IMG/VR virus record: IMGVR_UViG_2778261067_000008
Coordinates: 1 to 42,756 of that record
Reading direction: 5' to 3' (one strand)
DNA length: 42,756 nt
Origin: a virus
Lineage: Duplodnaviria; Heunggongvirae; Uroviricota; Caudoviricetes
The position numbers are program-made. Within the stretch, counting starts at the first letter, position 1. Each line of letters begins with the position of its first letter. This document shows, in pieces, positions 3,001 through 9,000 of this stretch.

Positions 3001-6000
3001 CATTTTGGGGTCGAATCCGATGGAACGCCCAAGCGTAACGATCGTGCGTACATCGTGGTCATTCCAGTACGCCCACGGGCAGATTTGTCCTGCTCGCTCG
3101 TAAGCTCCACGTAAAATTACGTTGTCGAAGGTGGCCCCGTTACCCCAGACTTTTAAATATTTTATATTGTCTGCATGCTGATTAATGAAATGACTCAATT
3201 CAGAGAGTGCATCGCTGATCGATAAAGTATCATCAATACAGATTGCAGCTCGTGCTTCAGGGCTCTGTTTCAACCACCACAGGATGGTATCGCCGTCAGG
3301 TGTAGCTCCTTGCTTCATAGCACTGTCCAGGCTGACAACCGCATAGAATTCTTGTCCGATGTCACCGGTTTCTGGGGTAAAGAACACCGCGCCAATGGAA
3401 ACGATCGGTGCATCCTTATTTTTCCCCATCGTCTCAAGGTCGATCATTAAGTTGTTCATCACTTCACCTCCTGCGGCGGTTCTGGTAGCGACATCCAGTG
3501 AGTTGCTTGCTCAATACCATTACCCGGCTTAATCGTTGCATCTCCGCGCCGAAAGGTGCTTCCGGTATAGCGTGCGGAGCATATTAGCGGTTCAACCAGA
3601 GAGCTATCGAAATTCACCGAAATAAGCACGTTCTGGCCCTTTTCAGGCATTCGATCACTACAGCTTATCCAACTATCCGGAGTTCCCGGAGAATTGCCAT
3701 TTACATCGAAGTTTGGCTCTGCGTCCTGAACCAGGAGGATGTAACCATTCTTGGCTGTATCAAGTTCTAACGCCTCGGTGACGGTACCGAAATAGCGATT
3801 ACCTAAATCAGCATCACAAGTGCTTACATCAATGGAAACTTCCATGCCTTCGATTAATTCTGGCAAGTTGTAAGTCTGGCTTACAGGTTCGGCTTCCAGC
3901 GATGTCAGTGCAATCCGTGCCAGTTCCATTTGTTCACCACGGGTAAGCCCGTTTTCAAGCGGGTTTTTAATGAACAATTCAATACGTTCTTTGGTAATAG
4001 TGGTCATGTGTTACTCCTTAACCCGCAGTGCTTTCAACTGATGAGGGGAACAAAATCTTTTCATCAAACCCTGCATTCATATCATGAACAGCAACACACC
4101 AATCCATCGACGAACGATTATCAAGAGCCTCCATGATTTCATCCATGCGGCGTAGGTCATACAGGTAAATGCTTTTATCGCCAATGGTGTAAAAACCAAT
4201 TTTTTTCGGTGATGGGCAGCGATCAAGAACGTCCTGTAATTCGTTCAACCATGCCCGTTCTTTTTTTGTCAAAGTTGCCATATCACTCTCCTTTGATGCG
4301 AATGCCAGTAGCGCGGATTGCATCGATGACTTCAGAAACTTTGTATGCCATTACCGTTTGGTAATCATCGTGAAAATCTGTTCGATGAAGCATGCTGCTA
4401 CGTTCCGGGAGCAGTATTTCCCGCTCCTCCAGTTCTGCTATGCGCTTTTTTGCTGCTTCCAGTTCATCCAGTAATTCCAGCACGGTAGCCGGATTAGCCT
4501 TGGCAACAAAATCCCGGACTGGCTTACAATCAATCTCCGCAATGGGTTGATACGATGTGTAGCCATGCTGTCTTGTATAACTACCGTGACGAATAACGAA
4601 AAAATCACCATTTATTTTTTTAGCCTGCCACTTATCTTCACCGGCTTTCTCTGCCGCCTCACGCAGCGCCTGATAGTTAATTTTGCTCACTGGTTGCCTC
4701 CTGTTAAATTTTCTGTGATATCAGCGTTTACGACGATCATTCACATACACCGGCATAAACACTGCTGCACACCGTCTTATCGTTCGTGCTCGCCAGTAGG
4801 TCAAATTGAGCGCCACCTCGGGTTGTCATTGCCCAGTCGCGATAGGTTTCGATTCCGTAGCTGTCTACGGTAACTACATCTATGCGACGTTCTGCCCGGC
4901 GTGGGTCATGAGTTGACGGGAAAAACGTTGAGTTGCCGCGGCGAGAGCAGGCTGCAACTAATCGTTCCCACTCTGCCACTCTGGCGATTTCCTCTGGCCA
5001 GCGCTGAAAAATTTCCGCCAGTTCAGATTTTCTGGCATGAATGCATGGCATACACCCAACGCGGCTGCATCCTTGTTGGTAGAGTGGGTTGGGTTTAATC
5101 CCGTGACGCCTGGCAATAGCGAAAACATCCTCATGTAGCCAGTTGAGAATCGGACGATAGACATGCAATCCGGGGGTATTGTCCGCATCCTCCTCCCACA
5201 CTTGCAGGCGTGCCCTCGATGGCGATTCCTGAGCACGCACACCCTGCCAGGAGATAACTTCGTCATATTTATCAAGCGCAGGTTGCACCACCTGAGTGCG
5301 CACTGGTTCGTGTTTCAGTTCGAATGTACAGAACCGCGCTTTAGTGCTCGGGAAACGACCTTTCCACATGCACAGGTCAAGAAATGGATTTCCGGTTGGG
5401 TGGAGGATTTCCAGCGCACGAGCAACACGTTCCGCTGCTTCATCAGGCGTCATTCCGCACTCTGCAACAAGAGATACAGGCCATTTTTCAGCAATGAATT
5501 TGCGCTTACCTTCTATCTGGCGAGTGAAGTCGGCTTTTACGCGGCGAATTGGTCCCAGCTTTTGTTCCAGATAGTCAAGGTACTCCATCGTTTGTGGGTG
5601 TTCGTGCCCCGTGTCAGCAAACACGCGCTCATGCTGTATATCGTTTTCTATGGCGTACAAACATTGCGCCAGTGAGTCTTTCCCGCCAGACATGGAAACC
5701 AAATTAAAAGTGCTTTCTGCTCGGCAGCGCTGAACGATGCTCACTGGTTGCCTCCTTTGCGAAGCTGGGCGGCAAAGTCAACTAACCACTCAGTCATTTC
5801 AACCTTCCCTACCAGGTCTGAACCAGGGTGCATACAGCAATCACTCTGCACCGCTTTGAAATCCTTATACTCATATTCTTGGGCCACCAGATTTTTTGCA
5901 GCTTCTATAGCAGCATCCACGCCCTGCGCCCGCACTTCAGCCAGGAAAGCATCGGTGGCTGGCATATTTCCTGTTGCCTTCATGGCCTCCAAAATAACCA

Positions 6001-9000
6001 GAACGCCATCTCGCCCAACCACCTCAGCGATAACCTCAGTGTTGTCGCCAACAACATCGCAGAATGCCTGAACTGCCTTACGAGCCAGCTCATTCTCCGC
6101 TGCAAGCGCCGAAAACTTCTCGTGTGTCAACTTTACAGCTGCATCAGCCTGCTTAATTGACTCAATCGCTCTCTGCTGGTCTTCGGACAGAGCCGAAATC
6201 TTGGCCTCCGCTTCAGCAAATTTACGCACCAGATATTCAGCATCCGTTTCATTCACTTTCAGATCTCGCGGTACACATTTCCCGCGAAGAAATCCTTCCA
6301 TTTCGAAAACATTCATGCGCATTTGCGTAACTCCGATAATTCGTTAAAGCGTTCCATAAACATCCCGTAGGCATGGCCTGGAGCCAGTGGAATCACGTTG
6401 AACATCTCTGTTGCCGGGATACCTTCCAGTACAGGCCAGAAAGAGCCATCATCAAGCCCGAGATCGCGGCGTTCGGTTGCCAGCATGATGAGATCGGCAT
6501 ATTTCACAGGCGTGCTCATAACCTGGGGTAACCCGTATTTCTCACGGATTACGGCATCTATTTTTTCTTCCATCCGTTTATAGTCAGGAAGAAGGCGTTT
6601 CAGTGGAGCGGGGATGTCCTGGCAATATGCTTCTGTTGCATCATGCATTAACGCTTCAAAAGCAAATTCCTGCGGTACCAGCTGGCTGCAAAGAACCGCA
6701 TGTTGGGCGACGCTGTAGAAGTGCGAAAGATGACCGGCAAAGCGACAGATATTTGAAAGGGAAACCGCGATATCGTTAATATCGATGTCGTCTTTATTTA
6801 TCCTGTCATAATAAAAATGCTTCCCGGAAAAAGTTTTAATAAATGACATTTTGTTCTCCACGTATATGCGCTGCACCGCGCTGAATTCTGCTAAAAAGAA
6901 TCCCTCACCATCCGGTGATTATTGAGTTAATTACGTTTCCATAAATGCCCCCGCAGGGGCATTTGCAGTAATGAAATCAGGCGGTGAAAGTACCAATAAA
7001 GGTTTCTACTTTGCTGTCTTTGAATTTCTCAACAAGCAGATCACGAAATTCGTTAGCCATTTCTTCCTGCACCGCTTCCAGCTGAATAATGCGCAGAACC
7101 AGTACAGGACGATCGCCAGTGATAATGCTGAGGCGTAATTTAAACGGACGTTCTTTCAGACCTTCAAACGGAACGCATTTAAATTCAAATGCCACTGGCA
7201 TAATGTCTTTGGTCTTCGCTTCGACAGACTCCATCAGGGAGCGTTTGCCGCTGAAGTCATTGTCTTCAAAATCAGCGGTCTGGTTCGCTTCAATTGTGAT
7301 TTTACGGATCGCCGCAGCCGCTTTGGTTGCCTGAATGGCGTCACCATTAGCATCAAAGCCCACAAGGTAGTCGGCCCAGTCTTCAATCCATTCTGCCAGT
7401 GATTTCTGGGAGTTACGCTCGCCATTAACAGACAACAGAGCAGAGAACGGTGCAGTCTTTTTCAGTTTGAGAGTGGCGGTGTTATCTGCGTGACCTGGTT
7501 CATCAATAGTACCCAGGTTAAGCACACTGACGGCACGCATATTATCAGCATCGATAAAGCAGCGGGTGCCTTCATCTGCAAGATCTTTAGAATAACGGGT
7601 AAAGTCATCGATGCTGGCAGTGGAAAGCGCACCACGGAAACGGAAACGATTTAAATTAAATTTTTCCAGATCATGAATGCGGAAATTCTCAGGCAATGCC
7701 ACAGCATCGGCACCAATCTTACTGATAATTTCATTAACACCCTGAGCAGAAATAAGGGCATGGATTTGATTAATTGCGGTTGCGTCTAAGTTCTGAGACA
7801 TAATAAGTCCTCACTATATAAAAATATTCAGTGATGAGATAAATAATCAGTTTATTAAAAACGATATTAATGACCCGCTGCGCGGAGTTTTCCGTCAGGT
7901 TCACCGGCAAGAGTCAGTAATTGTCCCTGGTCTTCCTGCAGAATAGTCAGGCGACCACCGCGATTGACATACATCGGCGTTTCGGTGGTGTCTTCTTCAG
8001 AAATTTTCCCGCGGTTAGTCGGGCGAACATATGAGAGTTTGTGTTTGATTTTCACACGGTTCTCATCAAACGGTTCGATTTCCAGGTTGAGCGAGACCTT
8101 ACCTTTGGTTTTCGTGTTCATCACACCGGAAGCGACTTCACTGAGAACTGCGCCGATTTTGGTTTCAAATACGCCGCCGTCCAGCTCCCCGATAAATGCC
8201 TGCACATCAGTACTGCGTTCGCTAGCCATTTTGCTGCTCCTCATCATATCGACCCTGCAAGGTCGGTTGGTTTCTCCACAAAACAGAGAAGAACACCTGC
8301 GGTGGCAGCCGCCCGGGTGGATTGGGTTATGAGCCCGTCGTCCGGTGATGCTCTTCTCTGTTTTGTAAAAAGAGCGGTACCAGCCGGAAGCAAGTGTACA
8401 AACTGGTACCGCCAAAGCAGTGGCTGTTGTGGTGACCGGTGCTGATCTCCGGCTTGCGGTTATTTCAGACTCTCACGGGCGTTTAATTGCCCCGCCGAAC
8501 AGCTCTTTTCCGCAATAGCTGCAATGTCTTTCGCGCATCAGCCTGCGCATTCACCACAACGCTGAGAGCACTTAGCCAGTTACGGCACCACACTTTGTCG
8601 CGGTTCCATAAATGCCCTCATCGTTGCACCCTGGTCTCTTCCCAGGCGTCAAACCGGATCGCCGCGCTGGTTAGGCGTCTTATCAGCATCCTCATTGACT
8701 TGCACATTCCGGCTACCTGGTTTGTTTGCCCGAGCAAGGAGTGGATTGTCCCCTTTAACGTCCCCAGACCGCTAACGACGCATGTGCCATACGCCGTGTT
8801 ACAACCAAATTTTGTTAGTACCTTGTTTGTAGGTCTGGAAAGAAAGATAAAATGAAGTTGCGCATTATGCAAGTGTTTTTATTGCGAGATATGCAATTTG
8901 GTGGGTAATGAAAAGCCACCTTCTGGTGGCTAATTGATGTTGAGGTAGGGGGTTAATTGTGTCGCTTAAGGGTTTGTGACTGACTGATTAAGACCTTTCC

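Follow-up and report, generated by a model that had tools for sequence, protein, structure and literature searches.

We have analysed a 42,756-nucleotide stretch of DNA from the virus record IMGVR_UViG_2778261067_000008 (Caudoviricetes), in which a run of five genes on the minus strand ends with a gene for a protein resembling 3'-phosphoadenosine 5'-phosphosulfate (PAPS) reductase. Below, "the window" means this whole stretch, and gene coordinates are window positions. The reading that we favor, at a probability of about 0.6, is that this region, the early-left accessory region of an Escherichia coli prophage of the SfV/lambdoid type, is a mosaic of three independent pieces and that its PAPS-like enzyme is directed at DNA. 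The five genes are not one system but a new arrangement of known parts. Two observations carry the argument: the PAPS-like gene moves on its own, as a cassette, and its family is associated with DNA methylases. Because the gene usually travels with DNA methylases, its product probably acts on DNA rather than in sulfur metabolism.

Phage genes labeled "PAPS reductase/cysH" are among the auxiliary metabolic genes (AMGs) most often reported in viromics, and to our knowledge no phage copy has been assayed. The window provides an E. coli instance with a near-identical orthologue, in full-length comparison, in the model phage 186, and the contested annotation is thus testable in a tractable system. 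The evidence directs away from sulfate assimilation (an ATP-type PP-loop, the lack of the CysH motif, and coupling to methylases) and toward DNA modification or anti-defense. The value of the region lies in giving access, in E. coli and phage 186, to a phage enzyme family that is widely mis- or under-annotated; the yfdPQR part of the region was known before and contributes little.

An independently mobile one-gene cassette

The PAPS-like gene (4737-5744, minus strand) encodes a PP-loop protein and predicted iron–sulfur (Fe-S) enzyme of 335 residues, which matches PF01507 (E 4.9e-37) and phrog_424 (E 7e-84). Exactly this protein is encoded in at least four phage backbones, most of which lack yfdR (loci are cited by our L numbers). 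L007 and L012 represent the window's own backbone type, the only type among the identical-protein backbones that has yfdPQR. The same protein is found without yfdPQR in a RecT–Gp157 phage (L008), in an Erf–HNH–SSB–Abc2 phage (L010), and, following DnaT, lambda-P, and DUF1064, in a rightward operon just before the terminase (L009 and L011). L007, L012, and L021 are 99.5-100% identical to the window over more than 6 kb and thus form a single lineage with it.

The DNA held in common with other backbones ends close to the edges of the gene. With L010, only window positions 5761-4653 are shared, at 100% identity; with P2-like prophages (L005 and L001), only 5759-4737 are shared, at 97.5%, which amounts to the open reading frame (ORF) plus a 15-nt ribosome-binding site (RBS). 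An exact 18-bp direct repeat, GGAGGCAACCAGTGAGCA, located by script on the minus strand, flanks the gene at both ends. Its first copy (5738-5755) holds the end of the preceding 193-aa gene, the RBS, and the GTG start of the PAPS-like gene; its second (4684-4701) holds the RBS and GTG start of an ead/Ea22-like gene (4283-4690, minus strand; 135 aa; PF13935, E 2.5e-18), which forms the downstream flank of the slot. The slot junction can be written AAAGGAGG(C/T)AACCAGTGA and encodes the ...GNQ* end of the preceding gene, the RBS, and the next GTG start.

The slot is also found empty and with other contents. A synthetic query for the empty site found a one-piece match in E. coli E47 (L102, about 2700-2720), where a single junction copy connects an EaE-like gene directly to the ead/Ea22 gene. 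The slot of E. coli Ec-RL2-1X is occupied instead by a gene for a 161-aa class I S-adenosylmethionine methyltransferase with a DPPH motif, which ends in a junction copy of its own (L101, 2712-3197). We picture the PAPS-like gene as a self-contained, one-gene cassette that would have entered a recombination-prone slot with the conserved coupling sequence AGGAGGCAACCAGTGA at its borders.

The PAPS-like gene moves independently of yfdPQR, as the identical protein occurs in backbones without these genes, the shared DNA ends at ORF edges, and the empty site exists; its adjacency to yfdR in the window is the recombination outcome of one lineage. On these grounds, the initial annotation, which had treated the PP-loop, HD-domain, and YfdQ/YfdP genes as one unit, is not supported. 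Their distributions in E. coli likewise speak against the grouping: yfdPQR-type DNA is present in 4063 of 5426 complete genomes, as against one for DNA of this PAPS allele, where it is a pseudogene in a P2-like prophage. In the P2-like E. coli prophages (L005, 6673-9008; L001, 6001-8336), ParM and a StbB-like partition protein precede the PAPS-like gene, present there as the 97.5%-identical allele in the interval from gpA to the portal gene; an internal stop interrupts the PAPS-like gene of a P2-like prophage in strain GDSC2BY4G.

The closest relatives in characterized phages are of the P2/186 type. The protein is 83.2% identical to phage 186 Orf84 (NP_052288) over residues 3-335 (phrog_15238, E 3.6e-110), and the genes of P2-like Yersinia phages are 83-84% identical to it. 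Orf84 and the P2/186-type "PAPS reductase family proteins" (phrog_424) share the size of the window protein, its full length at 83-84% identity, and a location in an early lytic operon. The settings differ: the window gene has EaE-like and ead/Ea22-like genes on its two sides, in an early-left slot of the lambdoid kind, whereas the P2/186-type gene either directly precedes replication gene A or follows Dam. The phage 186 record describes orf84 as non-essential and of unknown function, and states that translation of the A protein appears to need translation to the end of orf84. An orthologue thus already on record as non-essential is at odds with the earlier view that nothing here had been characterized.

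Association of the PAPS-like family with DNA methylases

We compared 80 viral loci that encode relatives of the PAPS-like protein, clustering all ORFs within 3.5 kb against one another. The commonest upstream partner is a D12-type Dam methylase, present in 24 of the 80 loci; in 16 of them, the Dam stop codon lies no more than 15 nt from the PAPS start. A C5 methylase cluster is represented in 10 loci, and Dam or C5 methylases together in 33. Downstream, the commonest partner is the replication protein gpA (30/80), as in phages of the P2/186 type. The usual order in P2/186-like loci (L024-L062) is Dam, PAPS-like gene, and replication gene A, each stop codon overlapping the next start (in L055, for example, 4138-5001 and 4998-6002); in phage 186 itself, exonuclease and DUF5405 genes stand where Dam usually does. 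Phages known as isolates show related orders: methyltransferase, PAPS-like gene, and ParB-like gene in phiE125; methyltransferase, PAPS-like gene, and methyltransferase in Rivra; and N4-methyltransferase and PAPS-like gene in SFCi1. In Parlo, S1, and Alfacinha1, a methylase lies two or three genes from the PAPS-like gene. An association with ParB, hinted at by phiE125, Riah, and L032, was set aside, as a ParB-like neighbor is found in only 2 of the 80 loci.

A Pfam census that took in the three ORFs to either side of the gene in each of 47 distant loci, 266 ORFs altogether, gave 19 matches to methyltransferase families and one to Mom. The control consisted of 150 distal ORFs of the same loci; of the 46 families matched by these ORFs, the top 25 include no methyltransferase family. 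Since the census, at E 1e-4, would miss YfdR-like HD genes, these were sought by tblastn. They lie within 5 kb of the PAPS-like gene in 6 of the 80 loci and are close to it only in the window lineage, L023, and L085. In L023 (4190-6008), the order runs from cI through an HD gene (63% identity), a 95-aa ORF, and the PAPS-like gene to int; in L085 (4233-6020), the HD gene (42% identity) is directly upstream of the PAPS-like gene. Both are short repressor-to-integrase operons without yfdP or yfdQ, and their arrangement is the sole evidence we found that favors a link between the HD and PAPS-like genes.

Published work offers one experimental parallel. Piel et al. (10.1101/2021.05.05.442762) moved two Vibrio-phage genes, one of them encoding a fusion of a PAPS domain to Dam and the other of unknown function, and the recipient phage escaped a Dnd system. 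In this fusion, from Vibrio crassostreae phage 44E38.1, a phage PAPS_reduct domain is linked to Dam, which parallels the Dam–PAPS pairs in 24 of our 80 loci. A 2026 paper in Nucleic Acids Research lists Aca-regulated PAPS reductases as candidate anti-defense genes (PMC13551039). Literature searches on 186 orf84, on anti-Dnd or anti-Ssp PAPS reductases, and on cysH AMGs versus phosphorothioation returned nothing beyond these two papers, and the main text of Rousset et al. on P2 hotspots does not mention the PAPS-like gene. The initial annotation had suggested a role in DNA modification or anti-restriction for the genes of the run together. For the PP-loop enzyme, this suggestion is plausible, given the link of its family to DNA methyltransferases and the Vibrio anti-Dnd region; as a joint function of the run, it is not supported.

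Proposed activity of the PAPS-like enzyme and its alternatives

The protein clearly belongs to the PAPS_reduct family: PF01507 matches residues 15-236 with 128.1 bits against a gathering cut-off of 22.5. A search of 50%-identity cluster representatives retrieved 2818 proteins at E <= 0.001, of which 372 also passed E <= 1e-30, and conservation was read from an alignment of 57 sequences spanning 38-85% identity. The SGGKDS PP-loop reported in the initial annotation is indeed present (residues 19-24; 5673-5690, minus strand, as for all motifs here); G21, D23, and S24 are invariant, and S19, G20, and K22 are at least 90% conserved. Three cysteines are predicted Fe-S ligands, namely C139 (5328-5330), which is invariant, and the pair C231-M-P-C234 (5043-5054), of which C231 is invariant and C234 is 96% conserved. 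The C-terminal tail, C326-x7-C334-E335 (4740-4769), contains an invariant C334 and a C326 that is at least 81% conserved. K144, R170, and E173 are also invariant, and C125 is at least 81% conserved.

In several respects, the protein resembles the assimilatory APS (adenosine 5'-phosphosulfate) and PAPS reductases (CysH; PDB 2goy, 1sur, and 7lhr). An AlphaFold2 model (mean confidence score, pLDDT, 92.5; the last ~25 residues, with C326 and C334, are least confident and are taken as flexible) has the same fold, and the best solved matches in Foldseek are APS/PAPS reductases (E about 2e-7; TM score 0.6 on the target), followed by TtuA, FMN adenylyltransferase, and CysD. K144 and C139...C231xxC234 match cluster-ligand positions of APS reductases. 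In alignments with the Mycobacterium tuberculosis and Pseudomonas aeruginosa APS reductases, the motif GC231MPC234 falls opposite their GCxPC cluster ligands, and C139...K144-x-E-P, in a reading by eye, mirrors CC...K-x-E-P of the P. aeruginosa enzyme. The second cysteine of the APS-reductase Cys-Cys pair is Thr140 here, for which C125 could substitute.

In other respects, the protein departs from these enzymes. It has an ATP-type PP-loop, as does the phage family, which keeps SGGKDS where aligned CysH/APS-reductase sequences have the degenerate loops SSSFGI and SFSGAED. It also has a helical insertion and ~100 extra C-terminal residues; this extension alone, searched against PDB sequences, gave only noise. 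The C-terminal catalytic motif of the PAPS reductase CysH is ECGLH. This motif is not present in the window protein, which ends in ...CSSVYAGVCE, with a family consensus of YGLCE. Curated models of true reductases score far under their cut-offs: 64.7 versus 154 bits for NF002537, 43.8 versus 165.1 for TIGR00434, and 39 versus 254.2 for TIGR02057 (all CysH), and 52.6 versus 235.3 for TIGR02055 (thioredoxin-dependent APS reductase).

The resemblance to phosphorothioation and related defense enzymes is also partial. PADLOC models match in the order SspD (E 5e-25), BrxP (9e-14), and DndC (4e-8), and in bits, SspD (86.7) exceeds CysH (64.7) and DndC (about 30). The SspD match spans positions 70-202 of a 277-position profile that has no curated cut-off, and the DndC model TIGR03183 is missed by a wide interval (22.6 versus 290.4 bits). 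The literature presents DndC as a PP-loop ATPase that has a cysteine dyad and a three-Cys 4Fe-4S center. The window protein likewise has an SGGKDS PP-loop and a cysteine pair, and its conserved cysteines would allow a three-Cys [4Fe-4S] cluster. It differs from DndC, SspD, and BrxP in aligning to only part of the profiles and in being encoded by a stand-alone phage gene; there are no SspB/C neighbors, and no dndA/D/E neighbors were found in the window or in related loci. The family profile also matches QueC and the CBASS-associated Cap9, through the PP-loop, and shows a weak PDB match (E 1e-4) to a 270-aa protein named "PptA" (21fy).

Considering motifs and neighborhoods together, we suggest that the PAPS-like protein is an ATP-using, adenylating PP-loop enzyme, with a [4Fe-4S] cluster that would be held by C139, C231, and C234 and with a mobile C-terminal cysteine pair, and that its chemistry would resemble that of DndC and SspD. 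Its gene would be expressed early, and its product would act on DNA, usually in partnership with a phage DNA methyltransferase and without dependence on the neighboring HD hydrolase. We give nearly even odds to the combination of ATP use, an Fe-S cluster, and action on DNA in modification or anti-restriction. More tentatively, and with the odds somewhat against so specific a proposal, Orf84-type "PAPS reductases" in general may have no part in sulfur assimilation and may be stand-alone, ATP- and Fe-S-dependent, DNA-directed enzymes that act early in infection, beside Dam or C5 methylases, to defeat restriction or phosphorothioate-sensing defenses, and that spread as one-gene cassettes among P2-like and lambdoid phages through a conserved translational-coupling linker. 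Candidate activities would be thiolation of the DNA backbone or of bases, and removal or mimicry of phosphorothioate marks.

Several considerations weigh against a DNA-directed enzyme in the window. First, we infer its DNA substrate, its use of ATP, and its Fe-S cluster alike from sequence. Second, its closest matches among solved folds are to true APS reductases, three of whose four cluster ligands it shares, and CysH too works by a mobile C-terminal cysteine; the protein may therefore have sulfonucleotide reductase activity. Third, DndC and SspD need partners (DndD/E and SspB/C, respectively), which are absent here. Fourth, the control for methyltransferase enrichment is made up of the top 25 of 46 families, and the counts ignore phylogeny. 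Fifth, the window has no methyltransferase adjacent to the PAPS-like gene, and the Dam-family gene of the identical locus L007 is kilobases away, in the rightward operon. Sixth, the 44E38.1 protein is a fusion, was transferred as one of two genes, and is likened to the window protein by domain content and the link to Dam. Finally, the HD genes within two genes of the PAPS-like gene in L023 and L085 may reflect a loose functional link between the two.

Four other explanations can be set beside a DNA-directed enzyme. The one that survives best, although we consider it unlikely, is that the gene is a genuine AMG, a phage (P)APS reductase (cysH) that raises the supply of sulfite and cysteine during infection or lysogeny. 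This explanation accounts for the PF01507 match, for the best solved structures, and for the resemblance of K144, the Fe-S ligand positions, and the mobile C-terminal cysteine to those of APS reductase. It also agrees with recent usage: virome papers of 2026 call phage PAPS reductase a "true AMG" from its fold similarity to CysH (PMC13369170), many others assume as much, and phage PAPS reductase/cysH is being linked to host health (PMC13369170; 10.64898/2026.02.18.706556). Against it stand the bit scores, the SGGKDS loop, the YGLCE terminus, and the C-terminal extension described above. Moreover, the genes of the family lie in early operons beside DNA methylases and replication genes rather than sulfur genes, and E. 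coli already has its own cysH. A role in sulfate assimilation is thus unlikely.

A second explanation, which we hold to be less probable again, is that the enzyme modifies RNA or free nucleotides, by thiolation or in some other way, with tRNA as one candidate in the manner of TtcA or TtuA, and so tunes translation or allows escape from anticodon nucleases. A PP-loop combined with a three-cysteine Fe-S cluster is the TtuA/TtcA design, and TtuA structures are among the fold matches. These matches are weak, however (E about 2e-4, TM 0.33); the family is PF01507 rather than TtcA/TilS, and its genes keep company with those for DNA methylases and replication proteins instead of tRNA genes.

Third, the gene could serve the prophage or its host, as a defense or lysogenic-conversion gene, or could be mainly a translational coupler with little enzymatic role; to either we attach little credence. 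The 97.5%-identical allele of the P2-like prophages, next to ParM and StbB, fits a defense role, since the gpA–portal interval is a variable region in which P2-like phages carry anti-phage cargo, and the PADLOC SspD, BrxP, and DndC models do match the protein. The coupler variant draws on the phage 186 record, which ties translation of the A gene to translation through the end of orf84. Both here and in 186, however, the PAPS-like gene sits inside a repressor-controlled early lytic operon, and no partner defense genes are present. An active enzyme is also what the catalytic motifs argue for, since they do not vary across the more than 50 clusters, at about 40-50% identity.

Least probable of all is a single nucleotide- or DNA-modification pathway formed by the PP-loop enzyme, the HD phosphohydrolase, and YfdQ/YfdP, in which, for example, the HD enzyme trims the nucleotide pool and the PP-loop enzyme activates a precursor: the genes are co-directional and translationally coupled, and YfdR-like genes do occur near the PAPS-like gene in L023 and L085 and within 5 kb in 6 of 80 loci, but the identical PAPS protein in backbones without yfdPQR, the cassette boundaries at ORF edges and the empty site, the restriction of the window arrangement to a single lineage (L007, L012, L021), the near-ubiquity of yfdPQR in E. 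coli without a PAPS-like gene, the P2/186-type phages that have a PAPS-like gene and no YfdR-like gene within 5 kb, and a proximity to HD genes (3 lineages) far weaker than that to methyltransferases (33/80 loci) all oppose it.

The yfdPQR module and other features of the run

All five ORFs that the initial annotation had placed in this run are present on the minus strand at the positions it gave, with overlapping stop and start codons among them and domain matches far beyond chance. A cI-like S24 repressor gene occupies 8953-9645, and the label "early-left" is apt because the run sits downstream of it. The suggested translational coupling is likewise borne out. At 5741-5744, the sequence GTGA, with AGGAGG upstream, joins the TGA of the 193-aa gene to the GTG of the PAPS-like gene, and the TGA of yfdR (6313-6315) overlaps the start of the 193-aa gene (ATG at 6316 or 6322).

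The first three genes are orthologues of the K-12 CPS-53 genes yfdP, yfdQ, and yfdR. The yfdP orthologue (7867-8229; 120 aa; phrog_204, function unknown) encodes a protein 99.2% identical to K-12 YfdP, and the identical gene in L007 bears PF27127 (YfdP). The yfdQ orthologue (6977-7801; 274 aa; DUF2303) encodes a protein 99.6% identical to K-12 YfdQ and matches PF10065 with E 6e-93 and 311 bits against a cut-off of 26.6. The yfdR orthologue (6313-6849; phrog_318, E 3.5e-111) encodes an HD-domain protein 97.8% identical to K-12 YfdR over all 178 aa, as counted from the ATG; the ORF lister gives an alternative GTG start at 6876. YfdP, YfdQ, and YfdR stand in the same order and at the same spacing as in the yfdP-yfdQ-yfdR-yfdS-yfdT cluster of CPS-53. 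The window differs from K-12 in having a 193-aa mosaic in place of YfdS and in lacking YfdT, and K-12 lacks the PAPS-like cassette. DNA of the yfdPQR type is also seen in SfV, SfIV, cdtI, and Stx phages.

The initial annotation, as far as it held that none of these genes had been characterized, was mistaken for yfdP, yfdQ, and yfdR, whose products are 98-99.6% identical to the K-12 proteins. Noguchi and Katayama (PMC4776307) reported that YfdR binds DnaA in a manner dependent on DnaA Phe46. In the same work, multicopy yfdQRS or yfdQRT inhibited initiation at oriC, with yfdQ required and yfdP dispensable. YfdR gives only weak Pfam matches, to YfbR-like and HD_3 families, and it is a homologue of Atu1052 (PDB 2gz4). 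It contains an H...HD...D metal-binding motif (H50, H69-D70, and D78), and its activity as a 5'-deoxynucleotidase is taken from the RefSeq product name. The three genes are the K-12 CPS-53 module. In the mechanism that we envisage, YfdR is a putative HD-domain deoxynucleoside monophosphate phosphatase that binds DnaA domain I and that, upon overexpression with YfdQ and either YfdS or YfdT, would damp initiation at the host oriC. The yfdPQR genes thus look like a host-takeover module.

A sequence homologue of YfdQ is PDB entry 9o7m, "YfdQ Protein" (E 8e-45), whose 36 chains suggest that YfdQ forms a large homo-oligomeric assembly. Foldseek with an AlphaFold2 model of YfdQ (pLDDT 77) found nothing below E 0.06 in the PDB, the homologous 9o7m being outside the fold library, and literature searches on DUF2303, YfdQ, and 9O7M found nothing functional beyond PMC4776307.

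The fourth gene (5741-6322; phrog_614, function unknown) encodes the 193-aa protein, which has no Pfam family above cut-off. K-12 YfdS matches it only over residues 1-45, at 87% identity, so homology to YfdS does not extend over the full length. Beyond the YfdS part, pieces of the DNA match genes annotated as EaE or ead/Ea22-like in other phages. The protein is a recombinant of EaE-like and YfdS-like parts.

Between yfdQ and yfdR, in a gap of 127 nt, lies a perfect, GC-rich stem-loop on the minus strand with a 9-bp stem, AAATGCCCC-TGCG-GGGGCATTT (6943-6964). It lacks a U-tract, and a terminator scan made no terminator call there; from its sequence, it may be a site of RNA processing or attenuation. 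A promoter scan of the window found sites no more numerous than in shuffled sequence.

Further along the same early operon as the PAPS-like gene, an Rv2179c-like 3'-5' exonuclease is encoded at 2887-3462. Genes of this kind recur in early operons that carry a PAPS-like gene, both in a 5-locus cluster among the viral loci and as the "exonuclease subunit" gene of phage 186 (L050, 2691-3347; L002, 3145-3729). A strong terminator-like hairpin occurs at 2540-2565, just ahead of a PrtN-like gene. The left end of the window (1-2570) is AT-rich (33.5% GC in the first kb) and encodes a DUF2713 protein and a 178-aa protein. In L007, the genes further left are of the Fur-family, CsbD, MatE, and LexA-family types, and because these come next, a prophage boundary probably lies near the left end of the window.

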